DNA from: Candidatus Pacearchaeota archaeon
GTDB taxonomy: Archaea; Nanobdellota; Nanobdellia; Pacearchaeales; GW2011-AR1
Length of the DNA stretch: 64,000 nt
Assembly (NCBI GenBank): GCA_016188825.1
Contig: JACPHA010000019.1
Coordinates: forward strand, 3,414-67,413
Direction: 5' to 3'
Positions 12,002-62,585 of this stretch are shown in pieces. The notes beneath the pieces were generated by a model. It made no database searches, was not told the origin of the DNA, and worked only from the letters and a program-made list of their open reading frames with translations. Position numbers and translations under genes: made by a program. The stretch's first letter is position 1, and each line of letters opens with the position of its first letter.

Positions 12002-12365
12002 ATGATAAACATGACTTTGGCTATTCCGGAAGAATTATTCAGAAGAATGAAAGGATTTAGCGAGATAAGAAGTAGAAGATTTGGAAATTATGAATAAAAT
12101 ATAGAGAGTTTTGACAAACCCTAAAAATCTTCAAAACTCTCTAAGAAGGACTTTGAAAAAATCAGAAAAATAGAGGTTATTCAAAGTCCTCTATAGTGAA
12201 AGACGCAAGTTTTTTACCAATTTTGTGCGTCTTTCCCTTGATAGTCAATGACGAAACGGGAAATTATTAATGTCTTTGACTATAGCATCGAAAAGCAAAT
12301 TGAGTGAGAGAGGTGTTGAAGAGATAAGTAAAAGAATAAAAAGCGGCGCGGCTAAGAAGTTTTAA
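12002..12365 (+). pseudogene. small RHH-like antitoxin/regulator pseudogene interrupted by a hairpin cassette
   Basis: MINMTLAIPEELFRRMK, a frameshift, VEDLEIMNKI, a 183 bp insert, then ASKSKLSERGVEEISKRIKSGAAKKF-stop. Confidence 0.65.
12102..12284. repeat. four-unit long-loop hairpin cassette
   Basis: Stems of 13, 11, 10 and 12 bp (last with one mismatch) around 16, 22, 18 and 19 nt loops. Confidence 0.85.
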
Positions 12366-13015
12366 TGGAAGATTCAAGTTACTGGGAGATTGAGCCGAAC
12401 GAAATAGTTATAAGGACATGCGAGCATATCAAGTCTGGAAATGCTCTTGATTTGGGTTGTGGGGAAGGCAGAGATGCGGCTTTTTTAACAAAAAAAGGAT
12501 TTGATGTTTTAGCTGTTGATTCTTCGGCAAGGGGAATACATAAAGCAGAGCAACTGGCAAAAATTCATAAATTAAAAATCAAAACAAGAATTGAGGATAT
12601 TATCGACCTCTCTCTAAACAAGAACTTTGACTTGATATTGTGCAATAATGTTTTGCATTTTCTTGATTTTAAGAATGTGAAAAAAGTAATTGAGAAAATG
12701 AAAAAACATACTAAAATTGGAGGATTAAATGTTATAAGTGCTTTTATAGAAAATTCTGGAAGATATATGACAATTTGTCCAGAATTTTCTAATAAGACAA
12801 TTTCTATTTTTAGTCACGCAGGTCACGAAATTGTCTATAATGAGATGAATGATAAAAAAGGATTTGCTTTTTTATTTAAAGAAAATCAGCTTAAAGAATT
12901 TTATAGGGAATGGGACATAATTCATTATAAAGAGCTTACAACAGGAATTGAGCAGCATGATTTTACAAAACTACGCAGGCATGGAATTTCGGAGATTATT
13001 GCGAGGATTAAGTAA
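12365..13015 (+). CDS. class I SAM methyltransferase, TehB-like, with an in-frame hairpin insert
   Basis: ALDLGCGEGRD motif I, FDLILC..VLHF, GGLNVI. Confidence 0.88.
   Translation: MEDSSYWEIEPNEIVIRTCEHIKSGNALDLGCGEGRDAAFLTKKGFDVLAVDSSARGIHKAEQLAKIHKLKIKTRIEDIIDLSLNKNFDLILCNNVLHFLDFKNVKKVIEKMKKHTKIGGLNVISAFIENSGRYMTICPEFSNKTISIFSHAGHEIVYNEMNDKKGFAFLFKENQLKEFYREWDIIHYKELTTGIEQHDFTKLRRHGISEIIARIK
12747..12836. repeat. two-unit long-loop hairpin cassette inside a CDS
   Basis: TAGAAAATTCTGGA-17nt-TCCAGAATTTTCTA and AGACAATTTC-22nt-GAAATTGTCT. Confidence 0.85.
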
Positions 13016-13028
13016 TTATTTTAAGTGT

Positions 13029-13241
13029 TTAATGCATTAACGGACCATATTTTTTATATTTATAGATGATAAAATAGTGAAAAATATGTCAAGAAATTAA
13101 AATGCGAACTTTAATAAAATCAATATAAAGATAGTTATCTTACATCGGGGATTTATCGACGTTATTTACTAATTATTGAAATGGGTTGAATAGTTTTATA
13201 ATCTCTTTAAAGAGGCAGTTTAGTCCGGAATTGACCTAATC
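13029..13241 (+). repeat. dispersed non-coding repeat, copy 1
   Basis: Aligns by eye with 28928..29082 (TTTTTATATTTATAGA, AATTAAAATGCGAACT, AAGAGGCAGTTTAGT) and has two extra blocks. Confidence 0.85.
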
Positions 13242-13367
13242 GCCTTATTTTATTAGTAAAATTGTGCTTAATGTTAATTATAAAAAGAAGATTTTAGCAA
13301 AAGGATGAAAAGCTGTGAATAAAAGTTAAAGCAAAACAATTATAAATAAAATATTATTAAAAAAGAT

Positions 13368-14138
13368 ATGGGGAGCGATAAAAGAGGCCAGGTTGCTATT
13401 TTTGTTATAATCGCAATTGTAATTGTTGTTGCCGGGATTTTGATTTATTATTTGTTTCCTGATGTTAGGAGCGTGATTTCTGGAGAGATTGATCCAACAA
13501 TATTTATTCAATCATGCGTAGGGGAGGAGTTTAAAAGCCAGATAAAAACACTGGCAGAGCAAGGGGGATATGCAAATCCTGAAGGATATATTTTGTATGA
13601 AGACAAGAAGGCAAAATATTTGTGCTATACTTCCGAATATTATCTGCCTTGCAGAGTTCAACAACCTTTGATAAATGAAAATTTTGAAAATGAGCTGAAT
13701 AATGCTATAAAGAATAAGATTGATTCGTGCTTTAACGAAATGCGCGGAGAGTTTGAGGACAGAGGATATGAAGTTTCTGGAGATATTTCTGGAAGTGATG
13801 TAAAAATTGTGCCAAATAAAATTCAATTGGCAATGAACGGAAAGTTCGGTGCAACAAAGGGAGAGGAAACAAAAACATTTAATGAAGTTAATTATGAAAT
13901 TCCGAGCAAGATGTATAATTTAGTAATGATTGCAACAAGCATTGTTGATTTTGAATCTTCTCTTGGAAATACAGAAACATCTTTATATGTTGGAAATTAT
14001 CCTGACATAATTATTCAGAAAACTAAATTGACTGATGGCTCGACGGTTTATACGGTAAAAGATGCTACGACAAATGAAGAATTTACTTTTGCATCAAGAA
14101 GTTTAGCCTGGCCAGGAGGTTATGGGATAGAAGCTTAA
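13368..14138 (+). CDS. class III signal peptide (pilin-like) protein, paralog B
   Basis: KRG/QVAIFVIIAIVIVV leader; YLC...PC..QQPL and RS.A.P.G shared with paralog A. Confidence 0.82.
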   Translation: MGSDKRGQVAIFVIIAIVIVVAGILIYYLFPDVRSVISGEIDPTIFIQSCVGEEFKSQIKTLAEQGGYANPEGYILYEDKKAKYLCYTSEYYLPCRVQQPLINENFENELNNAIKNKIDSCFNEMRGEFEDRGYEVSGDISGSDVKIVPNKIQLAMNGKFGATKGEETKTFNEVNYEIPSKMYNLVMIATSIVDFESSLGNTETSLYVGNYPDIIIQKTKLTDGSTVYTVKDATTNEEFTFASRSLAWPGGYGIEA

Positions 14139-14139
14139 G

Positions 14140-14448
14140 ATGAAGATCGAAAAAGAGAAAGTTAATAAAGAGATAGAAGAATTAAAACCAAAAATAATCG
14201 GAATACTAAAAAATAACCGAATAAGGAAAGCGAGAATTTTTGGCAGCTATGCTCGTGGTGAGCAGAAAAAAAATAGCGACATTGATATTTTGGTTGAGTT
14301 TGATAAAGAGATTAGTTTATTTGATTTTGTTGGAGTTAAACTGGAAATTGAAGAGGCTATAGGAAAAACTGTTGATTTGGTAGAATATAAGGCAGTAAAA
14401 CTGCGTATAAAAAGAAATATTCTTATGGATGAGGTGAAAATAATATGA
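14140..14448 (+). CDS. minimal nucleotidyltransferase (MNT) antitoxin
   Basis: IFGSYARGEQ...SDIDILVEF...VDLV. Confidence 0.9.
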   Translation: MKIEKEKVNKEIEELKPKIIGILKNNRIRKARIFGSYARGEQKKNSDIDILVEFDKEISLFDFVGVKLEIEEAIGKTVDLVEYKAVKLRIKRNILMDEVKII

Positions 14449-14525
14449 AACGAGATATTATGTTATTTTTAGGAGATATTTTAGAGAATATAATTCTTAT
14501 TGAAAAGTCTACTGAAAAGATTTAA
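14445..14525 (+). pseudogene. truncated HEPN (DUF86-like) toxin
   Basis: MKRDIMLFLGDILENIILIEKSTEKI-stop, with an ATGA overlap with MNT; resembles DUF86 N-termini. Confidence 0.65.
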
Positions 14526-14526
14526 A

Positions 14527-16338
14527 ATGAAAATAAAAAAAAATAAAAACGAGAAAAGTAGAAAAAATAATTTGATTTATGCATTTGGAATAACAATTTT
14601 ATTAATTTTTTTTGCGAATGTTGTTTTTGTAAATGCTGAGGGGGAAAGAGTCGGAACACTTGACAGGACAGTTTGCTGCGAAAAAACGAAATCGGGGCTG
14701 TTTTGCCAGGATGTTAAAGAAGAACAGTGCGCGACAGCAGATAATCCTCCGACTTCGTGTGTTTCTGTGTCATCCTGCAAACCAGGATTTTGCTTTGATT
14801 CTTTCGAGGGAACTTGCTTGGATAACACACCACAAATGGTTTGCAATGAAAATAAAGGGACGTGGTTTGCTGAAAAACCTGCGCAATGCGAATTAGGATG
14901 CTGTGTTTTAGGAGACCAGGGTTCTTTTGTAACATTGACAAGATGCAAAAAAATGTCCGGGGATTTTGGATTAGAGACTAATTTTAATCCTGACATTAAG
15001 GATGAAACAGAGTGTATTTTAACTGCTGGAAGCAGAGAGAGAGGGGCCTGTGTTTTTAATGAAGATTTTGAAAAAACTTGCAAACTGACAACGAGACAGG
15101 AATGCGCTCCGGAAAATATTTTAGGCGGGAGTGGAAAATTTGGAATAGTAAATGAAACACAAAATAGAAACCTGGAGGGATTAACTCCAGCAGGAAGCGG
15201 AAATGAAGGAACCGGAAGCATAACAGGACAGGCAATTAGTGATTTGGCAACGAATGAAGTCAAGTTTTATTCTGGAAAGTTATGCACTGCGGAAGAATTG
15301 GGGACAAATTGCGCTATGACAAAAGAAACAATTTGTATTCCTGGAAAAGAAGAGGTTTATTTTGTTGATACTTGCGGAAATCCTGGAAATGTTTATGATG
15401 CTTCAAAGATAAATGACAAAGAATATTGGGCAAATATAAAAGACAAGAGTGAGATATGCGGGCCTGATTCTGGAAATGAGAATTCGCAGACATGTGGAAA
15501 TTGCAATTATTTGTTTGGAACATTCTGTCGTGCTTCTAACTCTAAAACTGCAAGACCAACTTACGGAACAAATATCTGCGCGAGCTTGAATTGCGTCGAT
15601 GATGAAGGAAATGAAAAATTGCATGGAGAGTCGTGGTGCTTGTATGATGGAGGCAGTGGAGTTGCAACAGCTGCGACTGGGGCAAAAGTTGGAAGCAAGT
15701 TTTACAGGCAAATTTGCAACAATGGAGAGATTTTAACAGAGCCTTGCGCTGATTTCAGGCAGGAAGAGTGCATTGAGAACAACATTGACACACCACAAGG
15801 CAGATTTTCTGAAGCGGCGTGCAGAGTGAATCGCTGGCAGGATTGCACGGCACAAAGAAGCCAGAGAGATTGTGAAAATTCTGACAAGAGAGATTGTAAA
15901 TGGTTTAATGGAATTGGATATGTTTTAATGGGCTCTATATTGAACGGCAGTTCTTTGGATGACAACTCTCTTGCATCGGCAAGGCAAAGGGCTTCTGGAG
16001 CAATACAAGCGCAAGGTGGCTTGGAAAATATTCCTAGGGGTGCGTGTGTTCCTAAAGTAACTCCTGGATTAAATTTCTGGACAGGAGATGAAGCGCGCGG
16101 CATTTGCGCGCAGGCAAATGCAATATGTCCTGTGACTTATGAAAAAAAAGCAGTTGGTGGTGGAGACTGGAAATGCGTAAAAAACTGTGAATGTGATCCG
16201 AATGAGCATCCAGAAGTTTTGGCGCAGAGATTGCAGTTGTGCATGTCTCTCGGAGACTGCGGGCCAAAAGTAAACTGGGTTGGAGACAAAGGATATAATA
16301 TTGGCTATGACGTTACGAAGAGAAAGGTTGGGGATTGA
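14527..16338 (+). CDS. Cys-rich secreted protein, homolog of the N-half of 7456..11964
   Basis: Signal peptide; shared GCCVLG, CGNCN, HGESWC.Y, AACR.NRW and C.SLGDCG motifs. Confidence 0.88.
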   Translation: MKIKKNKNEKSRKNNLIYAFGITILLIFFANVVFVNAEGERVGTLDRTVCCEKTKSGLFCQDVKEEQCATADNPPTSCVSVSSCKPGFCFDSFEGTCLDNTPQMVCNENKGTWFAEKPAQCELGCCVLGDQGSFVTLTRCKKMSGDFGLETNFNPDIKDETECILTAGSRERGACVFNEDFEKTCKLTTRQECAPENILGGSGKFGIVNETQNRNLEGLTPAGSGNEGTGSITGQAISDLATNEVKFYSGKLCTAEELGTNCAMTKETICIPGKEEVYFVDTCGNPGNVYDASKINDKEYWANIKDKSEICGPDSGNENSQTCGNCNYLFGTFCRASNSKTARPTYGTNICASLNCVDDEGNEKLHGESWCLYDGGSGVATAATGAKVGSKFYRQICNNGEILTEPCADFRQEECIENNIDTPQGRFSEAACRVNRWQDCTAQRSQRDCENSDKRDCKWFNGIGYVLMGSILNGSSLDDNSLASARQRASGAIQAQGGLENIPRGACVPKVTPGLNFWTGDEARGICAQANAICPVTYEKKAVGGGDWKCVKNCECDPNEHPEVLAQRLQLCMSLGDCGPKVNWVGDKGYNIGYDVTKRKVGD

Positions 16339-16353
16339 TTTTTTATTATAAAT

Positions 16354-17070
16354 TTATTCTCTGTAGGTAACTTCTAATCTGGGGCCAATAAAACCGTTTT
16401 CTTTTGAATAAAATACTGCATAATCAAAATCGACATTACTAAAACTTGTTGTTTTTATTGCTAGTCCGTTGTTTGGTATTGTATAATTATACCATTTTCT
16501 AACTGCGCCTGTTACATCAAATCTATGGGTGGCTGCCACATCAAATTTTATAGTTTGGGCGTCTAGGTTTATTATTTGAGTTGGCATGTTATCATAACTA
16601 ATACTATTTTCTCCCCAAGATGAAAAACGAATATAGCCAACTTCTGTTGTGCCTAGAGGTTTAATATAACTAGCATTACTTCCTGGCACTAACGATAATT
16701 CTGCGTGGATAATTTCTCTCGCGGTAATTCTTGAAACATCAAATTTTATGAAAGCGATATAATCTGTATAGCCAGAAGAGCCTAGATTTGAATTTCCTGT
16801 GTATAAAATCCATTCGTCGCCGAAGTTTTGAGAGGGTTGACTTGATGAAACATAACTGTCCTCTGATGCGCCAATATCGGCTGTTTTTATTTCATTTTCG
16901 TTGTCTCCCTCATTATTTTGCGGTGGACTAACATTTACCGGAGGTTCATAATCGGAAATATTTTCCGGGAGAGTTTGAGGACAGCCAAAAAGTGAAAGGG
17001 TTGTTGCAAGCAGGGCACTACTCAATGATTTTTTAATTCTATTAGAAGATAAGATTTTGTCTAAACTCAT
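16354..17070 (-). CDS. putative lipoprotein with a DNRLRE/CBM96-like domain
   Basis: LSLFGC lipobox; DSYV...NFG, FIKFD, W.E..I.Y...P, FDVT..V..W, N.GL and P.LEVTY pattern. Confidence 0.75.
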   Translation of the reverse strand: MSLDKILSSNRIKKSLSSALLATTLSLFGCPQTLPENISDYEPPVNVSPPQNNEGDNENEIKTADIGASEDSYVSSSQPSQNFGDEWILYTGNSNLGSSGYTDYIAFIKFDVSRITAREIIHAELSLVPGSNASYIKPLGTTEVGYIRFSSWGENSISYDNMPTQIINLDAQTIKFDVAATHRFDVTGAVRKWYNYTIPNNGLAIKTTSFSNVDFDYAVFYSKENGFIGPRLEVTYRE

Positions 17071-17205
17071 TTTTACTTTTTGATAAAGTTATTCAGAAAG
17101 TATATAAAGATTTATGTTAAAAATTATAGAGATTAAACTTGGAAAAGTATAAAACGCAGAGTTATTTATTCTTTTCTTAAAGATTGAAAAATCTTATGTT
17201 TAAAA

Positions 17206-17427
17206 ATGAGAAATGTAAAATCTAAAAAACTTTTGAGGGCATTAATAAAACTTGGTTTTGAAGTTAAAGCACAAAGTGGCACTCATGTTATCCTGCGTGG
17301 ATTTAGAGATGGAGTAAAAAGAACTTTCCCTGTTCCTATTCATCATCAAATTATTCCGATTGGGACTTTTAAAAGCATTCTTAAACAAGCGGGCGTAACA
17401 GAGGAAGAACTGAAAGAATTTTTATAA
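17206..17427 (+). CDS. hicA: HicA family mRNA interferase toxin
   Basis: L.KLGF...Q.GTH...VP.H...IP.GT..SILKQAG. Confidence 0.88.
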   Translation: MRNVKSKKLLRALIKLGFEVKAQSGTHVILRGFRDGVKRTFPVPIHHQIIPIGTFKSILKQAGVTEEELKEFL

Positions 17428-17661
17428 ATAAAGTCTAGTAAGTAAGACTGGTTCTTCTTTTTTTAGCAAGTCTGCTTTTTCTGGTTCTACAGAAATTAAT
17501 AATCTCAATGCTTCTTTTAAATTATTAAGAGCGTCTTCTGGACTATCACCAAAATCACTTACAGAAAGCTCTTCGCATTCTGCTACATAAACTGGCTTTC
17601 CTTCCAAATCCTCTTTATGAATTACTACATTACATGACAATTCTTTGCTTAATTTTTTCAT
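17422..17661 (-). CDS. hicB: short HicB family antitoxin
   Basis: YVAEC.EL...FGDS.EDAL.N.KEAL; no C-terminal DNA-binding domain. Confidence 0.85.
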   Translation of the reverse strand: MKKLSKELSCNVVIHKEDLEGKPVYVAECEELSVSDFGDSPEDALNNLKEALRLLISVEPEKADLLKKEEPVLLTRLYL

Positions 17662-17772
17662 AATAATTTAATAACTGATTTGCTTATAAGATTATCGGTT
17701 TTGTTTTCTTATTTTTATCCTAACTTTATAGTAATAGCAAAGTTTAAAAAGTATCAATGGTGTTGATTTTTC

Positions 17773-18462
17773 ATGAATTTAACAAGAAAATTAGGAAGAG
17801 AAATTGTTAGCGCAGGAGTTGGGTTAGCAGGAGTGTTGAGTTTTGGGGGATGTCAAACTCCTGAAGATACTGCAACTGTTGCGACGATTGCAGGAGTTTT
17901 AGTGCCGGGAGTTGAGGATCCGGGAAGGGCTGCTGCATTGGCTGCTGCAGCGCAAGGAATGCATGGAATTGCACAAGTTCAAGCGCAAGAACAAAATAAA
18001 ACAAATGTGAATGTTTATGTGAATGGAAATAATGCTCAATATCAACAACCTCAAAGACAAATTACAATAGAGGAATGGAATAGAATGTCTGGAGAAGAGA
18101 AAATAAAACATGTTTATGATAATAAAGCTGAAATGTTTTTTGCTTGTACTCGAGTAGAAGATTATAATAGAAATGGATTAATAGAACCAAATGAATATAT
18201 TGGAATAGAAAAATGGTGTTTTTCAGCCAATGAGAATATTGTCATTGGAGCAATAACCTTTGAAAAACCAGGAACAGAAATATTAATTAGATTGCTTCCT
18301 CCAAGCAGACCAGCAATAGATTATAAAAGAATAGTAGATAGAGATGGTTATGTTTTTTGGGAATTAATTCCTAGAGAAAAAAAAGAAATAGGAAGAAATG
18401 CGTTATTAAGGTATGCTAATGGGCGATTCATGGGTAAAATAGAATTTGATATAACGCCTTAG
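17773..18462 (+). CDS. putative lipoprotein with Ala/Gly-rich helices
   Basis: LSFGGC lipobox; DYNRNGLIEPNE EF-hand-like motif. Confidence 0.7.
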   Translation: MNLTRKLGREIVSAGVGLAGVLSFGGCQTPEDTATVATIAGVLVPGVEDPGRAAALAAAAQGMHGIAQVQAQEQNKTNVNVYVNGNNAQYQQPQRQITIEEWNRMSGEEKIKHVYDNKAEMFFACTRVEDYNRNGLIEPNEYIGIEKWCFSANENIVIGAITFEKPGTEILIRLLPPSRPAIDYKRIVDRDGYVFWELIPREKKEIGRNALLRYANGRFMGKIEFDITP

Positions 18463-18502
18463 CTCTCAAAATATTTATAAGCAATAATTCTTTAAGTTAA
18501 AC

Positions 18503-21334: not shown

Positions 21335-21348
21335 AACTGAAGAAATTT

Positions 21349-27385: not shown

Positions 27386-27387
27386 TT

Positions 27388-34137: not shown

Positions 34138-34386
34138 TTACTGCTCGTCTTTATGATAAAGGTCAAGTATGTACGCTATTTTATTTGAAGCGTCGTAAAA
34201 ATATGATAATCTAAAAGGAGAAATATAAAGCTCTCTTGTGCCTTTTTTTGAATATCGCATCGGCTTTCCAACTTCAGGATTTTCCCTGATTTTAGAAATC
34301 TGTTTTATTATTTTTTCTTTTGTTAGCGGATCTTTAATCTTGGAAAAAAGACGTTTAAATCTTTCTTCAAAAATTACCTCTACCAT
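34138..34386 (-). CDS. RelE/ParE family toxin
   Basis: I..NP..GKP.R....G.RE.YI..FRL.Y...H.DE. Confidence 0.85.
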   Translation of the reverse strand: MVEVIFEERFKRLFSKIKDPLTKEKIIKQISKIRENPEVGKPMRYSKKGTRELYISPFRLSYFYDASNKIAYILDLYHKDEQ

Positions 34387-34649
34387 TTTTTTATTTCTTT
34401 TAAGAAATCTTCGAAGTTCATTCTAATACCTTTTCCAGATTTAACTCTTTCCAAGGCTTCGTCTGTTCTTTTTGCAAATTCCAAATCATCTTTCATCTGC
34501 TCTGATACTTTTGAAACTTTCTTTAAAATTATTCTGTCTTCATCTTTTACAATAAGCAACTCTTCTCCTTCTCTAAAGTCGCTCCTCATATTGCTTGGTA
34601 TAACCACCTGTCCCTTGGAGCTTATTCTTGTTACATTAATATTTACCAT
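34380..34649 (-). CDS. AbrB/MazE family antitoxin
   Basis: TRISSKGQVVIP..MR..F.EGE. Confidence 0.9.
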   Translation of the reverse strand: MVNINVTRISSKGQVVIPSNMRSDFREGEELLIVKDEDRIILKKVSKVSEQMKDDLEFAKRTDEALERVKSGKGIRMNFEDFLKEIKKW

Positions 34650-34666: not shown

Positions 34667-34699
34667 ACTATATTTAAATCTTTCGCTAGAATTTATTTT

Positions 34700-35642
34700 T
34701 GTCTTATCCAGAAATAATGTTCATTCGACAAATAAGATAAGCTCTGCTGTAGAGCAGAGTCTTATGAGGAAACTTAACAAGAGAAAGATAAAGTGGATTG
34801 TAAGGGAAGTTGAAAGGAGGGAGAATGGGCTTTACACAATAGCAAAGACACAAAACATAACACCACAACATACGTGTTATGTTTATCGAAAGTATAAAAA
34901 TTGCAAAGATCCTGTCTTGCTTAGACCAGGAAGAAAACCAAAACAAATAAACGATGAAGAAAGGAAAATTATTATTCAAGCATATAAAGAAATTAGAGCT
35001 TCGGCAACGATGATAGAGCAATATCTCGATGAGAAAGGCGTTCATATCAATCATAACAGAATTCATAGAATTTTGCTGGAAGCAAAATTAGCTAAAGAAG
35101 AGCAAAGAAAAAAGAACAGAAGAACATGGGTCAGATATGAAAGAAAGCATAGTTTAAGTTTGGGACATACTGATTGGTTTGATTATCTAGGAAGACAAGG
35201 CATCATCTTCATTGATGATGCATCAAGATTCATCACTAGTCATGGAGAGTTTAATAATGCAAATACTGATAACTCATTAAAAGTTTTTAGAAGAGGTTTG
35301 AAATGGGGAATTTACAAACAGATGATGAGCGATCATGGACCTCAATTTGAAGAACAATTTACAGAAGGGCTTAAAAAAGCTGGAATAAAACATATCAAAT
35401 CGAGAGTTAAGCATCCACAGTCAAACGGAAAGGCTGAAAGAGCTATACAGACGATAAAAAAGCTCTGGAAAGAACTAGGAAGCTTCGATAAGGCAGTTGA
35501 ACAATACAATTACAAGAAACCGCATATGAGCTTAACTAATGGAAAGCTCAGAACTCCTTATCAAGCTTTCCTGGAGAAAAGAAAAAAATAAAAACAATGA
35601 ACAACTTAAAGAACCGAGTGAAGATTAATAGCGGATATTACA
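34700..35642 (+). mobile_element. IS481-family insertion sequence
   Basis: TGT...ACA ends, imperfect 28 bp terminal inverted repeats (20/28), flanking direct repeat AGAATTTATTTT. Confidence 0.85.
34764..35591 (+). CDS. DDE transposase (rve integrase core)
   Basis: HTD, FIDDASR, SDHG and PQSNGKAER motifs. Confidence 0.92.
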   Translation: MRKLNKRKIKWIVREVERRENGLYTIAKTQNITPQHTCYVYRKYKNCKDPVLLRPGRKPKQINDEERKIIIQAYKEIRASATMIEQYLDEKGVHINHNRIHRILLEAKLAKEEQRKKNRRTWVRYERKHSLSLGHTDWFDYLGRQGIIFIDDASRFITSHGEFNNANTDNSLKVFRRGLKWGIYKQMMSDHGPQFEEQFTEGLKKAGIKHIKSRVKHPQSNGKAERAIQTIKKLWKELGSFDKAVEQYNYKKPHMSLTNGKLRTPYQAFLEKRKK

Positions 35643-35927
35643 CAGAATTTATTTTTTGTAATTTACTAACTGTTACAATTTGTTTTACTGTCTTATAAAA
35701 GTTGTTCGCTAATTTAGTAATTGGCTACCTGAAAATAGACAAACCGATCTTCAACACTAGTCCTATTACTCCAATAATGAGACCAGTTACAGCAATATTA
35801 TTAGGAAAATGTTTCCTTTGAATAGTTGAAAAAACCATTGTCAAGATTGAGGAAAAATAGATGCTAAAAAGATAATAAGCCTAGAACTTTGTAAAAGGTC
35901 AATGGCAGCTAAAACCAAAGAGGCAAT

Positions 35928-50913: not shown

Positions 50914-51080
50914 ATAAAGAAGGAAAGGGAAGAAGATGACAATATCAAATGTTAATAATAATTGATTAGAAAGTAAAGGGGCAATTATTCTTACTCAAGC
51001 AGCGAACGATAACTTGATTATAAGAAAAAACAAAGGTTTTTATATTTAGTCTTTAGAGAATGTAATTATATTATTTCAAT

Positions 51081-54171: not shown

Positions 54172-54417
54172 TTATTTTCCAAGGCAAGAAAGCTTTTAAA
54201 TTGATTGATTTTTATTTTAAAATATTTTAATAATACTGCGTTATACGATCTAATAGAATTAATCTAACACAACTTTTTTATTGTTGACAAATTTATTATT
54301 TTAGGATTCCTAATTATTATCTCATCGGTCAATCAGCGCATTCACCAACTCATTAGGGTGCAGTATTTATGAATTTAGTCTAGTTATGGGACTATTAATA
54401 TCAATCAACAAAAAACC

Positions 54418-54807
54418 TTAATCCTCTTTTAAAGATGGTTTCATAATAGAGGAAAGGTCAATTATATACTTTCCGTCTTCTAATTTGTAAACTCTTGGCT
54501 TATTTGCGGCAAATAAATTTGATAGGTCTACAACATATTTGCCTGGCTTGAGAACTTTTATGCTTTCAAAGTCGAGGAAAACTGGGGCTTCTTCGTCTTC
54601 AAAACCAGTTATTTCCCGAACATCACGCTCAATTTGATTCTTTTCAACAGGGCTGAGTTCTATTTCTCCCATGCTTTTTCTCATTTTTTCAAGCTGCTCT
54701 TTTTTTATGTAAAAGAAAAATTTTCCCTTGCATTCATCACAACCAGTAAGAACTTGCATAGAGCCATCTTCATATAGTTTAGAACAATGAACACATTTGT
54801 AAGGCAT
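54418..54807 (-). CDS. oapC: zinc-ribbon protein OapC (DUF2072)
   Basis: MPYKCVHC...GC.EC....F.Y, ESI.V..PGKY..DL..LF and DG.YII. Confidence 0.85.
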   Translation of the reverse strand: MPYKCVHCSKLYEDGSMQVLTGCDECKGKFFFYIKKEQLEKMRKSMGEIELSPVEKNQIERDVREITGFEDEEAPVFLDFESIKVLKPGKYVVDLSNLFAANKPRVYKLEDGKYIIDLSSIMKPSLKED

Positions 54808-54856
54808 TTAACAACAAAGCAGAGAGGATTAATAAAGATTTAGATTTTTATAAATT

Positions 54857-54910
54857 ACAGAGAACCGAATAAAAAATTTCACACAATCAACTCAGTTCTC
54901 TGTCTGGATA
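54857..54910. repeat. long-loop hairpin unit homologous to 62400..62453
   Basis: ACAGAGAACCGA-23nt-TCAGTTCTCTGT followed by CTGGATA. Confidence 0.7.
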
Positions 54911-55150
54911 ACCGATAAGAACACATAATCACAGACTTAAATAATTCCTCATTTGTATCTAATTAGATAATACCAACTCTGATTTATTATTATAAAAATA
55001 TCTAATTTAACGACGATAATTGAATTTATTTTTTGATTATGTTTAACAAACATTTTTAATATTATTGACATTATGGTAAAAAACTAATATCTTACACATA
55101 GCATAATCAAGTCATTTACCTATATAAGTAATGTTTGGTAATACTGCTAG

Positions 55151-55183
55151 TTGATTAGTGGAAATCCGCACCAACTCTTTAAC
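55151..55183 (-). repeat. partial inverted third copy of the dispersed repeat
   Basis: Minus strand AAGAGTTGGTGCGGATTTCCACTAATCA matches the 3' end of copy 2. Confidence 0.6.
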
Positions 55184-55426
55184 AGATTATTGATAATAAC
55201 CCTTATAACTTATAATAAACTGGATTTTTAGAATTAATTAATGTTTGGTAATTATATGCAATTAAAATTATCTTTAATGAGTATTATGCATTATTTTTGT
55301 TTTAATGGTTTTGATGTTGCGTAAATGCCTCGCTCGCCTACTGTTAATATTATTCATTTGTATGTCCCATAAAATTATCATTAAAAAAATAAGCGATTAT
55401 CTGGTCAGTGAAATTATGATTGTTTT

Positions 55427-55834
55427 CTAACTTAGTAACAACTCAATCTTTCTTGGATCTTTTTTTATTTCCTTGACTATTGTTGCCGGGCCAATTACTG
55501 TAAGGCTTGAGCTATCGCCGACAAGGCGTCTTGCAAGCCCATATTTCATTTTTGTGATAATTCCTCTTTCTTTTAAGTTTGGCTCGACAACTGCAAGCTC
55601 AATTCCTTTAAAGCCCTTTATATGATCGACAAGCGCCATTGTGTCCTCAATCAACCGGGCTTCTTCTTCTGCACGAAGGCGGCCATGCAAGATAACAATT
55701 TTATTTTCAAGAATTAATTTAAGAATTTTTTTCACTCTTTCGGCTATTGTTAACTTTTCAACTTCTGAAAAAGGCAAAACCTGTATGCCTAAGCCGCGTA
55801 TTTTCTTCCCTCTTTTTTGAAATGTTCTTCTCAT
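55427..55834 (-). CDS. oapB: DUF2073 protein OapB
   Basis: L..EEEA.LIE.TM...F.GIE and LTVIGPA. Confidence 0.85.
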   Translation of the reverse strand: MRRTFQKRGKKIRGLGIQVLPFSEVEKLTIAERVKKILKLILENKIVILHGRLRAEEEARLIEDTMALVDHIKGFKGIELAVVEPNLKERGIITKMKYGLARRLVGDSSSLTVIGPATIVKEIKKDPRKIELLLS

Positions 55835-55835
55835 C

Positions 55836-56474
55836 TTAAATTTTTTTTGATAGTTTGAATAGAGATTCATAAAATTCTTCCATGTTTATTCCTTCTTTTG
55901 CCGAAATGCCAACTACCTCATATTCTGGAAATGCGGATTCTATTTTTTTTATTTCTGCTTTTCGTAAATCAATCTTGTTGGCTGCTATTAAAACTGGTTT
56001 TTTTCTTGCTACTAAGTTTCCTATGATTGTGATATTGACTTGAGAATAGGGGTTTTGTGTGGCGTCCAGAACAATAATTACTGCATCAACGTCGTCAAGC
56101 CATTGGATTGCTTCAATAATTCCTTGGGTGGCTTCCTTTGCTCTTTTTTTTGCAACACTTTTTTTCAGCCCAAATTTCAAGAACTCCTCGTAGTCAATTT
56201 TTGTGGCAATGCCTGGAGTGTCAATAATTTTAAACATTAATTCTTTGCCTTTATATTCTATGTTTACTTTTTCTTTTACTTGCACATTTCTTGTTTCATG
56301 GGGAACATTGCTTACTGAGCCAATTTCTTCGCCTGTCCAGTCTTTGCATATTCTATTAGCCAGGCTGGTTTTTCCTGAATTCGGCGGACCATAAAATCCT
56401 ATTTTTAAACTTTCTCTTCTCTTGAAAAGAGCTCGAAAAATTCTCAACGAGAAATTTTTTAGTATTTTCAGCAT
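55836..56474 (-). CDS. oapA: Era-like GTPase OapA
   Basis: GPPNSGKTSLANRI, PHETR, DTPG, NKIDL and ISA. Confidence 0.9.
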   Translation of the reverse strand: MLKILKNFSLRIFRALFKRRESLKIGFYGPPNSGKTSLANRICKDWTGEEIGSVSNVPHETRNVQVKEKVNIEYKGKELMFKIIDTPGIATKIDYEEFLKFGLKKSVAKKRAKEATQGIIEAIQWLDDVDAVIIVLDATQNPYSQVNITIIGNLVARKKPVLIAANKIDLRKAEIKKIESAFPEYEVVGISAKEGINMEEFYESLFKLSKKI

Positions 56475-56479
56475 TTTAT

Positions 56480-59194
56480 TTAGTATATCCCTTGTCTTTT
56501 AATAAATCTTGTGTCTACCGGCGCTCCCTGTCTTAATTTTATTTCTTTTTTAACTTTTCTGTTTTCCGCGAATTTGAATATTGGAATTTCCCACATGCCG
56601 GTTCTCTTGCCATCTATTTTTTTGAACGCATAAGTTAATTGCTCTCTTTTCCAGCCCTTGTTAAGAAGCTTTTCTCTTGCTTCCTTATCATCTAAATCTG
56701 ATTTTCTTGCATTATAAATAAAGTTAACCAGATTATAAAGATCGTTTGAATTTTTGAACAGACTTTTTTCATAATGGTTTTTATACCAAGTTTGAAGAAT
56801 TAAATAAACAACTAAAATTCCTAGAAAGATAAAACCAAGACTCCATGAAAACCTCTTCCAATTAAATACTCTTCTTAGAATTTCATCTGAAAAAGGCTTG
56901 CCTGCTTTAAGCTCTGAAATTACCGGAGAAATGTAAACGGCTAGTTCTTCGACACTCGGTAAGGTTTCACCCGAGATTAAAAATTCTATGACTTTTGGTT
57001 CGCCTTCAGTTATTTTTATGTATGTTGCACTTGTGTCAGTTATCGAATTTTCATCATATTGAGATTTGAAATCAAGGTTTTCTAAAGGATGGTCTATGAT
57101 TAAATAAGCTTCTTCGACATCGTTTTTTTCTGTAAGCTCTATTTTATATTTTCTTGCAAGGTTTCGTTTTTCAGAAAAGGTTAGGGAAAAAATTGTTTCA
57201 AAAGATATTTTCATGTTGTAATTTTCAGCAATCCAAGAAAGCAAAACTGAATTTAAATTGTCTGAGTCATATTTTGATAAATCTGCGTCTGAAACTTTTG
57301 CTAAATATTCAAGATTTATATTTGAAAACCCTATTTCTGCAGGCAAAGAACCTGTTTCAGTAATGGAAACCGAGTTAGGAACATTTAAGTCGGCAAGTTG
57401 GTTAACAATCTCGGTATAGTCTTGAGTTCTGTCTCCGCGGATTGATTCATAATTATCACTTATTTGATTTATTTCTCTTTCAATGTCTTCTACTGCTATT
57501 TGCTCTGTAATTTTTTTCCTTGTCCATTCTGGAAGCTTGTTTATATCTGATTTTATTGTGATGATTCTCGATTTGTAGTCTTGTAAAGTCAGATTTGCTG
57601 ATGTTTTTGGATTGCCTATAATAACTTTGAATTTTTTAGTTGAGACTTCGCCTCTTACATTTCTTAGAGTAACTTCTATTTGATATTCTCCTGCACTTGA
57701 ATAAACATGCACTGCTTTATTATCGCTCGATGCTACTGGAAGACTTCTGTCTCCGAAATTCCATGTTGAAGAAACAATAGTTTGTGATGTTGAGGCAATA
57801 AATGTTGTCGGCCTGCCAATTAAAACAGACCTTGGGCCGATTACAAAATCAAAGCCGATTTCTACTTCTATTTCATCTTCGAAAAGCTCTTCATCATTGA
57901 AAAATAATTTAAAATCATGAATGCCGTCTTGGTCTGGAACAAGAAATTTCATTTTTTCGATGCCAAGAGACAGAAAATCTGAAGAAGAAATTGTAAATGG
58001 CTTTTGTGATAGTTTGAAAAGTTTTGAGGTTGAGCGTGATCCGGCAGGATCTTCATATTGCAAGTTAGCAGAATCTAGGGTAATTTGTTGTGAAATTCCG
58101 GAAAATGCAAAAGGTATTACACAGCCCTTAGAGCAGTTATTAGAATAAACTTCTGAAAGATAATTTTTAACAGAGTTTGTTAATGATGTTCCGGAAAATC
58201 CTGTTGTGCCTATTGGAGCGTATTTTAATGGCTGAGCATAAATCTCGTAGTCTGAGTTGACAAATGACCTATTTTTTATGCTTCCTGTGAATACACCTCG
58301 CGCACCGCAGGAGTCAAAAGCTTGCCTGACTCTAATTTTGTAATCTGTGTCCGAGGCTGACCATAAACATACATAGCCATCAAAAATTTCTTTTGAATAA
58401 TTTGCAACTATGCAATCAACATCTCCTGAAGAAGGAGAAGTTATTTTGCAACCGCCCAATGCACTTATTAAAGATACCCCGTCTGAAGTTTCATTTACTT
58501 TATAAAAAAACATTTCCAAATCAGATTGAGAAGAAACTTTTTCTATTCGCGCTCCGACACGATATGCTGGCGCCGATGGAATGTTATCAATTTTTTCACA
58601 ATAGGGATCAGAGTCGTCATCTCTTTTGCCGATTATTACGGGATCTATTAAAAATTCGTCATCCTTAAAACAGCCGTAATTTTTTTCACCGCATGTTTGG
58701 TCAACGTATTTATTGTTTTGAAAATCTATTTTTCCGTCGTTTAAAAGGTCAACAGAAAGCTGGTTTTGACAGCTTTCTCCAACGTCTGAAGTGACATTAA
58801 ATTTAATGTTGTTTATATCATTTAATTTGTTCACGCTTAATCTAAAACCATATAGTTTTTTGTTCTCTAATGAAAATGTTTGTGTTTCTAAGCCGTCGGA
58901 ATCTGTTTCGTAGTCGTCCTTGCAACCAACAGGAGCGCATGTAAAATCAGAGTTTTTTTGGTAACTCGTGTTTAACAATAAATCATAAAGATTTGTTCCT
59001 CCTTTGAAATTGCTTGTGAATTCTGAATTTTCCTGATTAGTAAAATTCATGATTATCTCGCCTCTGACATAATCTCCTTCTGCATAAGTTGATTCAAGAG
59101 TGTAATCTTCATCGAAATTAAATTCTGCTGTTGAAAAACTAATTAGAAAAATAACTGCGATAAAAAAGACCAAAACCCCTTTTTTTCTTTCCAT
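56480..59194 (-). CDS. secreted PKD-domain membrane-anchored protein
   Basis: Signal peptide, WNFGD...H.Y...G.Y PKD motif, C-terminal TM and cytoplasmic tail. Confidence 0.85.
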   Translation of the reverse strand: MERKKGVLVFFIAVIFLISFSTAEFNFDEDYTLESTYAEGDYVRGEIIMNFTNQENSEFTSNFKGGTNLYDLLLNTSYQKNSDFTCAPVGCKDDYETDSDGLETQTFSLENKKLYGFRLSVNKLNDINNIKFNVTSDVGESCQNQLSVDLLNDGKIDFQNNKYVDQTCGEKNYGCFKDDEFLIDPVIIGKRDDDSDPYCEKIDNIPSAPAYRVGARIEKVSSQSDLEMFFYKVNETSDGVSLISALGGCKITSPSSGDVDCIVANYSKEIFDGYVCLWSASDTDYKIRVRQAFDSCGARGVFTGSIKNRSFVNSDYEIYAQPLKYAPIGTTGFSGTSLTNSVKNYLSEVYSNNCSKGCVIPFAFSGISQQITLDSANLQYEDPAGSRSTSKLFKLSQKPFTISSSDFLSLGIEKMKFLVPDQDGIHDFKLFFNDEELFEDEIEVEIGFDFVIGPRSVLIGRPTTFIASTSQTIVSSTWNFGDRSLPVASSDNKAVHVYSSAGEYQIEVTLRNVRGEVSTKKFKVIIGNPKTSANLTLQDYKSRIITIKSDINKLPEWTRKKITEQIAVEDIEREINQISDNYESIRGDRTQDYTEIVNQLADLNVPNSVSITETGSLPAEIGFSNINLEYLAKVSDADLSKYDSDNLNSVLLSWIAENYNMKISFETIFSLTFSEKRNLARKYKIELTEKNDVEEAYLIIDHPLENLDFKSQYDENSITDTSATYIKITEGEPKVIEFLISGETLPSVEELAVYISPVISELKAGKPFSDEILRRVFNWKRFSWSLGFIFLGILVVYLILQTWYKNHYEKSLFKNSNDLYNLVNFIYNARKSDLDDKEAREKLLNKGWKREQLTYAFKKIDGKRTGMWEIPIFKFAENRKVKKEIKLRQGAPVDTRFIKRQGIY

Positions 59195-59293
59195 TTTTTT
59201 ATACTAAAAAATATAGGTTTCTGGGTTATTAAAATCTTGTTGTTTTTTGGAATTGCAAGGATAAAATTTACATAATAGTATTTTGTAAAGCGG

Positions 59294-61531
59294 TTAAAGG
59301 AAAGACGTTTTTCTAGAACGCTTTTTCTTTTCCTTATGGCTTTCTCTTAGGTTATTCTTATTATGATATATATGATGTAAATAATAAATTGCAAATATAA
59401 CAATTAATGCAATTATGAAGTTTGCAAAGTTGAAAAAAGGCAGTTGGATGACTTTCGGGCAGGGGATTTGTTTTGTAGTTTCTCCTTCACATTCTTCTCC
59501 TGGCGGCCCAGATATTTTTGTTGATCTTATTGTTACTTGTCTTGTTGTTTGTCCTTCCGCGCATATTGGATTAGATAAATATTCAATACGACATTGTAGG
59601 CCGGAGGACGTTGTTGTTAGCCCTTTACACTGCCCATTTTCCCAATAACATGTTTCTCCCCCTGAACCGGCTCCTGAGCAGTCATTCTCACAAGCTTGTT
59701 GTTTAAAATTATTATTTCCAACACTATTATAATCTCCGCAATTTGTTGCTGTAAATGCGTCTGGATTTTCAATAGGATCGCAAAATTCCGTCGGGCCCCC
59801 CCCGCAATCTATATTTTTTGTAGGATCGGTATCATCACAATCATCTCCAGCAGGGCAGTTTGTTCCATAACTATCTCCATCATTGTCTGTACAACCAGGA
59901 GCGGGCGCACAAGTTCCTCCTGGTGTTATAGCATAGCCTAAACAACCACCTGCAGGATCAAGGTTTCCATCTCCATCCATGTCCCACAGAGCATTATTTC
60001 CACATGTACGATTAATATTATTGCTATCACAATAGGAAGTACCAAATTGACTTGCTGTGCAACCAAATTCACCAGGACAACTTGTAGATCCAGGAGCTAC
60101 ACACGTCCATCTACCATTGTTTGGTTTATCACAAATTTTGCCTCCGGTGCAATCACTATTATCAACACATTCGCTACACCATTCATTAACTTCGTTACAC
60201 ATTCCGAAAGGTTGTTCTGTGCAAGATGTGCGCGCCGGCTGAAAAGGATGACTGCAAGTTCCATCACTAGTCCTGCATCTATCTTGTGTGCATTCTATGT
60301 TATCATTACAATCAGCATCAGAAGTGCAAGCAGATATTACCTGACACCCATAAGTTGAACTGCAGATGTTACCTGGATTACATCCGGTTGTCTGTCCAGG
60401 AGTTGGACACTGCACGCAAGCTGCTACGGGTATGCTTCCCCAATTTCCTACAGTACTGGTAAAACCTATGCTTCTCCAAAATGTGGCTGTATTTTCAATA
60501 CAATAAGGATGGCTACTTGGACAATCTCCCGGTCCTATTGTGGCTTCGTTGTTTAAAGTGCAGTAAGCCTCGTTAACAGTATTACTACCAAAACATCTAT
60601 CTTCTGGGCTTCTAACAAGAACGCCATCTTGTCTTTGTTCTGCTCTTCCTGGTATTTTTAATGAGTCTTCGCCGTTTGTTATAGTTGAACCACTATCATC
60701 CGGATCAGTACAGGTTGGAGTTGCTGTAACACATCTTCCATTGTCACATCTTTGATCAGTGCTACATGTAGTGACTGTTGTAGCAACATCAAATGTATTT
60801 AAACACGAATAAACTGTGATATCCCGTATACCTGTTCCGCATGCATCTGTTAGGGTTTGGATTGGCCCCCCAAACCATGGCTGCCATGTAACAGTGCCTC
60901 CAGTAGTGTATGACCCGCCATTAGTATCAGTGCAGCGTTGTCTGCAAAAGGCAGGAGTACTGCTATCTGACCAACAACTAGTGTTTCCAAGGCATGCTGC
61001 AGAAATAATTTCTCTCGTAGCCAAGTTTATACTACAATAATACTCCACTATTTGCGTGCCTCCAACAACTGGACAAGAATCTGGTTGTACATCCCGCCCA
61101 TAAACTCCCCATCCTGAAATATTAACTTCATTATTTTGAAACCCTGGGGCGTCGTTGTCAGTATCAAAACAACCAGCTGATAGAGTATAAGAATAAGTTA
61201 ACGAGGTTGTACCAACAGTAGGAATTGTGATACCAGAAATAGTGCGTGTTTGATAAGCGCCATCAAATGCTCTTTTTCTTATAATAAATGTATAACTCTG
61301 ACCTGCAATTAAATTAACATAATTAGTCAACCCATTAGCATCTGTATTTTGGATATTGACGTTATTATCATTATTCCAGAATTCTACTGTGGCGCCTCCG
61401 ACAGGTTGTATTCTGCCAGAAACTACGTCTGTGACATTGACGCGCACATTACGGGCGCTCGCGCCTTCAATTAACAGGATAAAAAAAGCAAATAAAAATA
61501 TTATAAAAAACATCCTCTTTTTAATCATCAT
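59294..61531 (-). CDS. Cys-rich surface protein with C-terminal LPFF-TM anchor
   Basis: Signal peptide, C.D.D..E.YC repeats, DNDGDSYG...DCDD calcium-binding-like motif, LPFF plus TM. Confidence 0.85.
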   Translation of the reverse strand: MMIKKRMFFIIFLFAFFILLIEGASARNVRVNVTDVVSGRIQPVGGATVEFWNNDNNVNIQNTDANGLTNYVNLIAGQSYTFIIRKRAFDGAYQTRTISGITIPTVGTTSLTYSYTLSAGCFDTDNDAPGFQNNEVNISGWGVYGRDVQPDSCPVVGGTQIVEYYCSINLATREIISAACLGNTSCWSDSSTPAFCRQRCTDTNGGSYTTGGTVTWQPWFGGPIQTLTDACGTGIRDITVYSCLNTFDVATTVTTCSTDQRCDNGRCVTATPTCTDPDDSGSTITNGEDSLKIPGRAEQRQDGVLVRSPEDRCFGSNTVNEAYCTLNNEATIGPGDCPSSHPYCIENTATFWRSIGFTSTVGNWGSIPVAACVQCPTPGQTTGCNPGNICSSTYGCQVISACTSDADCNDNIECTQDRCRTSDGTCSHPFQPARTSCTEQPFGMCNEVNEWCSECVDNSDCTGGKICDKPNNGRWTCVAPGSTSCPGEFGCTASQFGTSYCDSNNINRTCGNNALWDMDGDGNLDPAGGCLGYAITPGGTCAPAPGCTDNDGDSYGTNCPAGDDCDDTDPTKNIDCGGGPTEFCDPIENPDAFTATNCGDYNSVGNNNFKQQACENDCSGAGSGGETCYWENGQCKGLTTTSSGLQCRIEYLSNPICAEGQTTRQVTIRSTKISGPPGEECEGETTKQIPCPKVIQLPFFNFANFIIALIVIFAIYYLHHIYHNKNNLRESHKEKKKRSRKTSFL

Positions 61532-61791
61532 GGAAAATAAAGGAGAGGAGAGTTTATAAATATTATAGGCGAGCAAATAAAATATGGGAAAGAGTACTTA
61601 AATATGCTATCTAAACAATGTCTTTATCATAGAAATAAATTTTCTTGCGTTTTCTATTGATTCTTTTGTATAAGGAAAATTTGCTGCTTCATTCGGCTTC
61701 ATCCAAGTTAAAGTTGCGAACAAGTATGTAAGAAATCAGGACAGACATCACGGAACTGTTTGGATAATAAAATAGACGCCGGAAGCCGTAC

Positions 61792-61823
61792 TCCGCCGAA
61801 GGCGGATTTGCCCGAAGGACAAA
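61792..61823. repeat. two GC-rich GAA-loop hairpins (REP-like)
   Basis: TCCGCC-GAA-GGCGGA and TTTGCCC-GAA-GGACAAA. Confidence 0.65.
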
Positions 61824-61940
61824 CCTTTAAAGTGTGGAGGACACCACATTATTTTTAAGACTAAATATATGAATTGGCAGGTTATGATGTTGTTTGATAG
61901 AGACTTAACCAGGATATCAGTTAATCACCAAGGTTTTAAA

Positions 61941-62585
61941 TCAGGATTTCCTCCAGATAAATAATTTTATTCTTTTGGGATCGAATTTTCTTTCTGTTAC
62001 TGAAGCGCTGATGACTCTTTCGCCTGCGAAAATTTCTTCCGCTTCTCTTGGATAGGGAATGCGCAATGGGCAAACTGAATCGTTAAGGGGACAGATGCTA
62101 ATGCTAAAATTTAATGCTTGATTTGGTATTCTTTCTTTGATAAATAATTCTGTATTGTTTAATATTGGCGCATTTGACTGGTCTTCTTGGGGTTTTGATG
62201 TGTTATAGTTTATTATCTGGGTTCTTAAATCTGGATTTTCAGCTACTTCTCTCAATAAAGGAGGAATCATTTTTCCTAAATCCGTTGTTTTTTGAGGAGT
62301 TCTGTTGTAGGAAAGAAGCAATAAGGCCGAAAAAATAATTAAGACTGCGAGAGTTGCCTCGACTATGCGCATGAATGCTTTTTTATCGTGAATTCTGTTA
62401 CAGAGAATTTGGTTAATTGAGCTACCTTTAGTTTCAAATTCTCTGTCTGGAGAATTCGAATGAGCGGTAACATAATCAACCGAATTCTCCATAATTGGGA
62501 TAAATTTTTGTCCAGAATTCCCGTGATGGATAATTCTCCAAAAACTACTCCAATCAAAAGAATTATCCATATTTTTGTTTACCAT
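61941..62585 (-). CDS. class III signal peptide protein with a hairpin cassette in its leader
   Basis: Start overlaps the upstream stop (ATGGTAA); KKA/FMRIVEATLAVLII site lies about 70 aa downstream. Confidence 0.8.
   Translation of the reverse strand: MVNKNMDNSFDWSSFWRIIHHGNSGQKFIPIMENSVDYVTAHSNSPDREFETKGSSINQILCNRIHDKKAFMRIVEATLAVLIIFSALLLLSYNRTPQKTTDLGKMIPPLLREVAENPDLRTQIINYNTSKPQEDQSNAPILNNTELFIKERIPNQALNFSISICPLNDSVCPLRIPYPREAEEIFAGERVISASVTERKFDPKRIKLFIWRKS
62400..62570. repeat. four-unit long-loop hairpin cassette inside a CDS
   Basis: Perfect stems of 12, 10 and 12 bp with 23, 22 and 21 nt loops, plus one degenerate unit. Confidence 0.85.

Follow-up and report, generated by a model that had tools for sequence, protein, structure and literature searches.

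What are the short hairpins with long loops that lie, singly and in arrays, between and within genes of a Candidatus Pacearchaeota archaeon, and by what means did they get there? The question arises from the 64,000-nucleotide stretch analysed here (hereafter, the window), which corresponds to positions 3414-67413 of contig C8 of the assembly under study, G000 (1,008,625 bp; 20 contigs; 33-36% G+C). Contigs of this assembly are given as C-numbers, and the related genomes with which it was compared as other G-numbers. Very probably, the hairpins are ultra-short MITEs (miniature inverted-repeat transposable elements) which owe their movement to an IS630/Tc1-mariner-type DDE transposase that acts in trans by cut and paste, inserting at a TA dinucleotide and duplicating it. 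A more exotic interpretation suggested by the original prediction, i.e., structure-defined cassettes spread by HUH enzymes, gives way to this ordinary and testable one.

As had been predicted, hairpins are far more abundant in the genome than expected by chance. With the criterion of a perfect stem of at least 10 bp and a loop of 3-40 nt, 222 hairpins were counted in G000, against 80-128 (about 104) across 20 dinucleotide-preserving shuffles. The excess lies mainly at loops of 18-23 nt, with 28 hairpins at a loop of 21 nt (shuffle mean, 2.85), 20 at 22 nt (2.65) and 14 at 19 nt (2.35); loops of 12 nt were observed 17 times (3.15). A looser count (stems of at least 12 bp with at most one mismatch) yielded 246 hairpins versus 39-69 in three local shuffles. 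The comparison of the assembly with itself revealed 391 repeated regions covering 91,856 bp (~9% of the 1 Mb), and this repeated DNA holds 143 of the 275 merged hairpins. These 143 fall into 87 arrays (45 single, 29 double, 12 triple and one quadruple), a set which includes a few non-elements, one of them a tRNA arm. In the window, arms of 10-14 bp are perfectly paired in the first three modules of the 12.1-kb array (Table 1), as well as at 12747-12791, 12795-12836, 62400-62446, 62448-62491 and 62526-62570; the fourth module of the 12.1-kb array is imperfect. The loops, which had been thought unique to each unit, turned out to be conserved inside families and to have motifs in common across families.

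In general terms, two levels of organization can be differentiated: (i) modules of ~45 bp; and (ii) doublets of 84-97 bp, mostly 91-92, whose outer ends are inverted copies over ~30 nt. Element termini read TA and then Y-R-G. In G000, families F1, F2, D1, B and F5 have 16, 7, 11 (11-12), 7 and 4 copies, respectively, and Logan contig depth is 281-480 at D1 and 14-23 in its flanks. F1, F2, B and the insert of a TehB-like gene at 12.7 kb form the AATT-core group, with one and the same anatomy, including the ~30-nt repeat and the 91-nt doublet; in this group, the outer ends align mutually over ~31-33 nt. Other modules are of a TATAG type.

According to the mechanism proposed here, a module would be composed of one full ~30-nt terminal inverted repeat plus an 11-13-nt stretch from the end of the repeat opposite. 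Pairing between the outermost 11-13 nt of the repeat and this short copy of the opposite terminus would give the stem, and the inner 16-23 nt of the terminal repeat the loop. Such a composition would account for the combination of 10-14-bp arms with a conserved 16-23-nt loop, and for the conservation of loops within families. The stretch TTTGTCCAGAATT, noticed from the beginning as common to the 12.7-kb and 62.5-kb arrays, is indeed present in both and corresponds to a terminal-repeat arm. The unit that multiplied would be the doublet of ~91 nt, i.e., two back-to-back modules with their complete repeats facing outward, and doublets probably arose from paired single modules. Fresh copies would enter TA sites, including TAs within or beside older copies, which would explain the tandem and nested arrays. 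Co-variation between arms, exemplified by a compensated arm change between G000 and G020 copies, would not require selection on the hairpin, since both arms would be ends bound by one transposase. The MITE interpretation leaves without explanation the great exactness with which every terminus preserves its short inner copy. Pairs of doublets 1.6-2.4 kb apart (on C3 and C19) were considered as possible composite transposons and discarded, as they enclose ordinary host genes.

Insertion with duplication of TA can be read from repeat copies that differ by an insertion, of which the self-comparison lists eight pairs. Four of them represent two insertions, each set against two empty copies: the 91-nt F1 doublet occupies two different TA sites in two C11 copies of a ~230-bp repeat, and the copies of the window (13022-13253) and of C19 are empty of it. 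This repeat, which has thus hosted two independent F1 insertions, is non-coding, has four copies (the remaining ones at C19:95256-95480 and, twice, on C11) and shows no Rfam match. Among the other pairs, the doublet at C18:10425-10512 has its empty site on C6 and that at C12:9444-9533 on C14; a larger composite difference was left unused, and a candidate pair on C13 proved to be an unrelated indel in a repetitive protein. The nesting of doublet B in doublet A constitutes a fifth case, since other A copies run uninterrupted through the TA that B occupies. All five informative filled/empty pairs have one TA when empty and a TA on both sides of the insert when filled, and for AATT-type doublets the duplication is seen directly in four of the five. 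More broadly, both sides are bordered by TA in 37 of the 45 doublet copies (F1, 14/16; F2, 7/7; D1, 9/11; B, 4/7; F5, 3/4), in a genome with a TA dinucleotide frequency of 0.074. At the level of single modules, a crude TA test gave no discrimination (48/143 versus 41/132). In any case, the TA duplication, the multiple copies and the terminal repeats support the original view of these hairpins as a family of non-autonomous mobile elements.

The type of enzyme is indicated by autonomous elements of related genomes. In G018, which belongs to the same genus, DDE_3 transposases were detected (94.5 and 87.5 bits), and a 64%-identical two-ORF element of G264 could be followed to both ends: these IS630-like ends are each flanked by TA and carry a ~30-nt terminal repeat beginning with TAGC. 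The first 28 nt of each end of the insertion sequence (IS) were compared, gapless, with all 2.0 million positions of G000, alongside 20 shuffled probes each. At a level of at least 21/28, the left-end probe matched 20 positions (0-1 per shuffled probe) and the right-end probe 14 (0 for the shuffled probes). Among the top matches listed, most are TA-preceded hairpin modules, including both modules of D2: the module starting at 12192 (+) has 21/28 nt of the G264 right end, and the module ending at 12284 (-) has 23/28 nt of the left end. Because both modules match G264 ends, D2 can be read as a left-end piece plus a right-end piece with the full repeats outward, as is usual in MITEs that derive from an IS by deletion. 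For the TATAG-type modules, candidate autonomous IS with such ends are known from other genomes only (G018 and G264); the AATT-core group was presumably moved by the same kind of enzyme. On contig C89 of G018, which ends just past the transposase gene, an AATT-type doublet (L031:1506-1596) lies ~140 bp outside the left end of the IS630-like element.

Several results weigh against the IS630 interpretation. To begin with, G000 yielded no candidate enzyme: (i) the DDE_3 profile (PF13358) had no match at E <= 1; (ii) the NCBIfam IS630 model NF033545 reached at best 18.5 bits (cut-off, 100), and its weak match at C19:38637-38969 turned out to be rve-type; and (iii) tblastn with five IS630-like proteins found nothing below E = 0.06. 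The element-rich genomes G020 and G004 are also without a DDE_3 match. When the IS ends were searched against G000 by blastn-short, E values were only 0.089-0.35, so the link rests on the gapless probe counts. For the AATT-core group, an end-pattern scan of species genomes returned MITE copies and chance matches, with no autonomous partner. The filled and empty sites are paralogous repeat copies, not alleles, and no empty allele at 12.1 or 12.7 kb was found in the contigs of the four DNA sequencing runs with this stretch, which belong to a single study, perhaps the one from which this DNA derives, and whose contigs break at repeats; no RNA sequencing run is listed as holding the stretch. Furthermore, the D1-D2 junction is one TA short of simple serial insertion in the 4/4 junction copies seen, and, if the TA acts as target and at the same time ends the element, a strand-specific HUH mechanism could in principle produce it as well. 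As to the enzyme, the completeness of the assembly is estimated at 82.8%, so these searches stop short of showing absence; since repeats are often missing from such assemblies, the transposase may be unassembled, lost or supplied from elsewhere, loss or location in unassembled DNA being what we presume.

The alternative that survives best divides the elements: the TATAG-type modules would be IS630-derived, and the AATT-core doublets would be moved by a different, unseen family of TA-duplicating transposases. We regard this as unlikely. It would agree with the lack of an autonomous element with AATT-type ends and with the modest likeness between AATT-type and TATAG-type ends, which by our own reading have ~14/25 positions in common. 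Nevertheless, the TA duplication was observed directly on AATT-type doublets, whose architecture is identical. The IS630-like right end of G240 also bears on this point: in a post hoc comparison, it resembles AATT-type ends at 18-20/28 nt, exactly at the end of a DDE_3 element and in register at its TA, and the match includes the shared GATTA..GTTAC loop stretch. The count obtained with the G240 end probe, which was set 2 nt out of register, was not above that of shuffled probes (22 positions of at least 19/28 versus 7-32), a further point against the extension of IS630 parentage to this group. On sequence grounds, the G240 element may be taken as a lead towards the parent of the AATT group.

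That the units are single-stranded DNA hairpins, akin to repetitive extragenic palindromic sequences (REPs) in bacterial interspersed mosaic elements (BIMEs) or derived from IS200/IS605, and moved by resident Y1 (HUH) transposases, as had been suggested, now appears highly improbable. Such enzymes do exist in G000 (C5:7-357, 98.4 bits; C18:11509-11844, 84.8 bits; and a copy at C12:2612-2958 broken by a TGA), with two intact-looking genes, one cut by a contig end, plus fragments; hairpin units alternate in orientation, as in BIMEs, and a TA serving as both target and element end would mimic duplication. But the Y1 genes are bracketed by GC-rich short-loop hairpins of their own, not by modules, the nearest modules to the C18 gene lying ~0.8 kb off with another gene in between. 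Nor do the genes track the elements in the survey of transposase and element co-occurrence among 41 related genomes: G020 (25 element matches) and G004 (10) have no PF01797 match, and element matches are lacking in several genomes that do have Y1 genes (e.g., G008 and G009). The element termini are symmetric, one group matching both ends of a DDE_3 element, and the TA is duplicated in five of five pairs. The search for TnpA and TnpB genes called for by the original prediction thus found Y1 transposases in G000 and no TnpB (PF07282, PF01385); IS4/IS5 (PF01609) likewise gave nothing above cut-off. Unlike hairpins around the Y1 genes, duplicated TA and no TnpB led us to reject an IS200/IS605-derived palindrome. 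Least credible of all are functional structured RNAs, regulatory or terminator hairpins, which selection for pairing would maintain and duplication, not transposition, would multiply: arms do pair perfectly yet differ between families, with the compensatory change cited above, and many copies are intergenic, but Rfam places no family on the hairpins of the window (only four tRNAs and a 5S rRNA), copies occur in both orientations and within coding sequence, boundaries are precise with a duplicated TA, the loop is conserved as part of the terminal repeat, and transposase-bound arms explain the co-variation without RNA.

Regarding their relation to genes, the claim that the hairpins colonize coding sequence was overstated. 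Only nine of the 87 arrays are embedded by 30 codons or more in an open frame of at least 100 codons, versus 55.0 +/- 4.7 under random placement, and several of those nine frames are artefacts built of element sequence; most arrays are intergenic. Assemblies break at these elements, and open reading frames are inflated by them: at C18:18348-18806 and C19:100947-101306, frames of 153 and 120 codons, respectively, consist almost wholly of MITE doublets and would probably be annotated as hypothetical proteins by gene-calling programs. In any case, in-frame insertion in the manner of Rickettsia palindromic elements did take place in two intact-looking genes of the window, as predicted, and in a third gene outside it; orthologs lack all three inserts. 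They are three natural cases of a transposon that has added 30-62 residues to a conserved protein with the frame intact.

The first case is the TehB-like methyltransferase gene at 12365-13015 (+) (Pfam TehB, E = 8.8e-34), where the doublet plus one TA amounts to 93 nt, i.e., 31 codons in frame. A same-genus homolog (L011:1456-2049; 41% identity overall) is missing exactly 31 residues at this point, and in E. coli-type TehB structures (2xva, chain 142-147) six residues stand opposite 34 here (query 132-165). An AlphaFold2 model of the protein, computed without an alignment, had a mean pLDDT of 37.3 and was unusable for placing the insert. The second case is a prepilin-like gene, called with a 70-residue leader: once 62386-62571 is removed, the leader shrinks to eight residues and immediately precedes the conserved hydrophobic core. 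The five same-genus orthologs inspected all have short leaders such as MVNKKG or MNKKG, and orthologs present in 19 of 20 genomes of the genus have open frames of 137-208 aa versus 265 here. This gene and its neighbour at 62579-63370 (-) are adjacent prepilin-type leader genes, in which KRG or KKA is followed by a hydrophobic stretch with glutamate; they possibly form a pilus operon, and neither has a Pfam match. The third case is a bacterial-type tRNA-guanine transglycosylase (TGT; C4:7026-8321), with a D1-type copy at residues 127-156 which is missing from the three closest orthologs and from the Zymomonas TGT. Since this copy plus TA measures 86 nt, which three does not divide, the frame must have been restored by an additional indel.

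The array at 12.1 kb interrupts a gene, in agreement with the original prediction. When it is removed, a single frame runs across the junction to a stop overlapping the ATG of the next gene, and an intact 76-aa paralog exists on C6 (L055:196-426). The tblastn match to this paralog is weak (E = 0.003 for the N-terminal part; E = 5.9 for the junction peptide), and the gene also carries a frameshift, so that either lesion may have come first.

Could the AATT-core doublets be adapted to a genome made almost entirely of genes? They are mostly 91 nt long, and in 26 of 30 copies the sum of element and TA is divisible by three; two or three of the six frames are open in the majority. Eight representative doublets have nine of 48 frames open versus 3.5 in shuffles, six of 500 of which reach nine. 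Because the three families are interrelated, frame-neutrality counts as little more than one observation, and the TATAG-type doublets show neither frame-neutrality nor openness. A more ambitious idea, which we hold as tentative and rather doubtful, is that the AATT doublets are shaped for a nearly all-coding genome: being frame-neutral and stop-poor, they could persist in genes as new peptide, including a cleaved leader, and they would be built of 45-bp modules that assemble at TA junctions into two-ended units, and spread between DPANN lineages without a resident transposase, as an archaeal counterpart of Rickettsia palindromic elements.

The elements are restricted to a few genomes of the genus. 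A BLAST search with window positions 62395-62580 found matches in six of 20 further congeneric genomes, whereas 20 genomes from other genera gave none. G020 has 25 matches, up to 92% identical, and its copies are TA-flanked. Orthologous proteins within the genus are only 39-51% identical; copies this similar in such genomes point to a recent exchange of mobile DNA among small-genome archaea. The end-pattern scan of species genomes returned 14 records, two of them relevant: (i) a record titled Candidatus Woesearchaeota archaeon, with a near-identical F1 doublet and its TA flanks; and (ii) a record titled Candidatus Aenigmatarchaeota archaeon, with a related TA-module-TA-module array in GC-rich DNA. 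The other 12 are bacterial or other and were taken, uninspected, as chance matches. These similarities would fit horizontal movement of the elements, and the data, with the Woesearchaeota doublet among them, are consistent with a DPANN archaeon as the host.

Table 1. Elements, target sites and interrupted genes in the window (positions count from its first nucleotide)
Feature	Position	Strand	Remarks
TA target dinucleotide, left of the 12.1-kb array	12100..12101		TA precedes all 11 D1-type doublets
Doublet D1, 92 nt	12102..12193	+	Modules 12102-12143 and 12147-12190, with degenerate outer end
Doublet D2, 89 nt	12194..12282	+	Right-end-type (stem 12198-12235) and left-end-type (12242-12282) modules, full repeats outward
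TA, right side of the 12.1-kb array	12283..12284		
Split small-gene remnant	12011..12366	+	Broken by D1 and D2; also a frameshift near 12070
Diverged AATT-type doublet, 91 nt	12747-12837 (with TAs, 12745..12839)	+	TA at 12745-46 and 12838-39
Doublet A, 91 nt	62386..62569	-	62386-62398, TA 62492-93 and 62494-62569; interrupted by doublet B; flanked by TA at 62384-85 and 62570-71
Doublet B, 91 nt	62401..62491	-	Sits inside doublet A, at one of its TAs; TA flanks 62399-400 and 62492-93
Prepilin-like gene	61941..62585	-	Leader coding sequence carries A and B, 186 nt (62 codons)
Decayed B-like doublet	54856..54950	+	TA precedes; score 42, reached by 0/300 shuffles
Empty sites for the F1 doublet	13129..13199	+	Inside the 4-copy ~230-bp repeat 13022-13253

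Two further units of the original prediction fared differently. The one at 54857-54903 is not a hairpin of the kind described, as its arms measure only 9 bp and its loop 29 nt, but it does survive as an element remnant, being the left part of a decayed doublet (54858-54950) whose local alignment score stands in Table 1; a left-end-type module remnant follows at ~54924-54975 (19/28 nt at 54924). The supposed degenerate copy at 50957-51017 found no support, since its score of 25 is reached by 102/300 shuffles.

In accordance with the original prediction, the window carries no transposase for these elements. An rve-type IS of the window (34694-35644; ~950 bp), with a 275-aa integrase-core transposase at 34764-35591, was rejected as a partner: it has no resemblance to the modules and shows an apparent ~13-nt direct repeat at its ends. 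As these ends match the ends of contigs C14, C15, C11, C19 and C7, this IS is multi-copy and assembly-breaking. A second, different rve-type transposase gene (294 aa) is located at C19:38148-39032 (L022:1012-1896). Beside the IS of the window, two small overlapping genes (34138-34649, -) resemble a toxin-antitoxin pair, which we take to be RelE-like (82 aa) and AbrB/SpoVT-like (89 aa). Elsewhere in the window, tRNA-Gly, tRNA-Arg and tRNA-Leu genes are clustered with a 5S rRNA gene (342-1458), and three very large cysteine-rich proteins of 1513, 612 and 760 aa (7423-11964, 14500-16338 and 59294-61576, respectively) have N-terminal hydrophobic segments and share CxxC-rich modules; they are probably surface proteins.

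Among known systems, TA-duplicating MITEs tied to IS630 have been described in bacteria: RUP of Streptococcus pneumoniae, MITEEc1 and Correia-type elements. Like the elements presented here, they are non-coding, multi-copy and provided with terminal inverted repeats, they duplicate TA on insertion, and their mobilization in trans is presumably due to a transposase of the IS630 family with the same ends. But while bacterial IS630 MITEs measure ~100-160 bp, the modules of this archaeon have ~45 bp and the doublets 91 bp; in addition, each end self-folds, as an inverted copy of its terminal 11-13 nt lies ~20 nt further in. Another difference is the archaeal host, whose assembly yielded no transposase. 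To our knowledge, 45-bp modules and 91-bp doublets are among the shortest transposable units.

Rickettsia palindromic elements, of ~150 bp, were first reported with 44 insertions in genes of R. conorii, and the same source calls in-frame fusions by intragenic MITEs "not unusual", with these elements as the extreme (PMC10969869). Both they and the elements of this study are palindromic repeats set in frame in unrelated genes and read as extra peptide. The likeness is one of working and does not establish membership. Unlike in Rickettsia, most copies here are intergenic and the coding insertions are a surviving minority, and for these elements a TA duplication and an IS630-type parent can be pointed to.

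REPs are defined as imperfect palindromes of 20-40 nt with a short loop and a conserved 5' GTAG. Together with BIMEs and their REP-associated tyrosine transposases (RAYT) (PMC2817692), they resemble the present elements in having short palindromic units, more than 100 per genome, in alternating mosaic arrays. However, the loops of REPs are short and their partner is a Y1 enzyme, whereas here the loops are long (16-23 nt) and conserved, TA is duplicated and the ends are of the DDE_3 type. Membership of this group was hence rejected: no Y1 gene is flanked by modules, there is no co-occurrence across genomes, and loops and termini are of the wrong kind.

MITEs are known from several archaeal lineages. 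A census reports them in 20% of archaeal genomes, ~89% intergenic, with the highest archaeal densities in DPANN and 105 MITEs per Mb in one Woesearchaea genome; MITEEc1_IS630 is also named there (PMC11602168). In its accessible text, that census gives counts only, and describes no TA duplication, parent IS, module and doublet anatomy or in-frame cases for this lineage; our literature search found no description of this hairpin family, which the supplementary MITE lists of the census may contain. In conclusion, these hairpins very probably belong to a known kind of element, the IS630-type MITEs, and are unusual in their small size, their modular anatomy and three tidy coding insertions.

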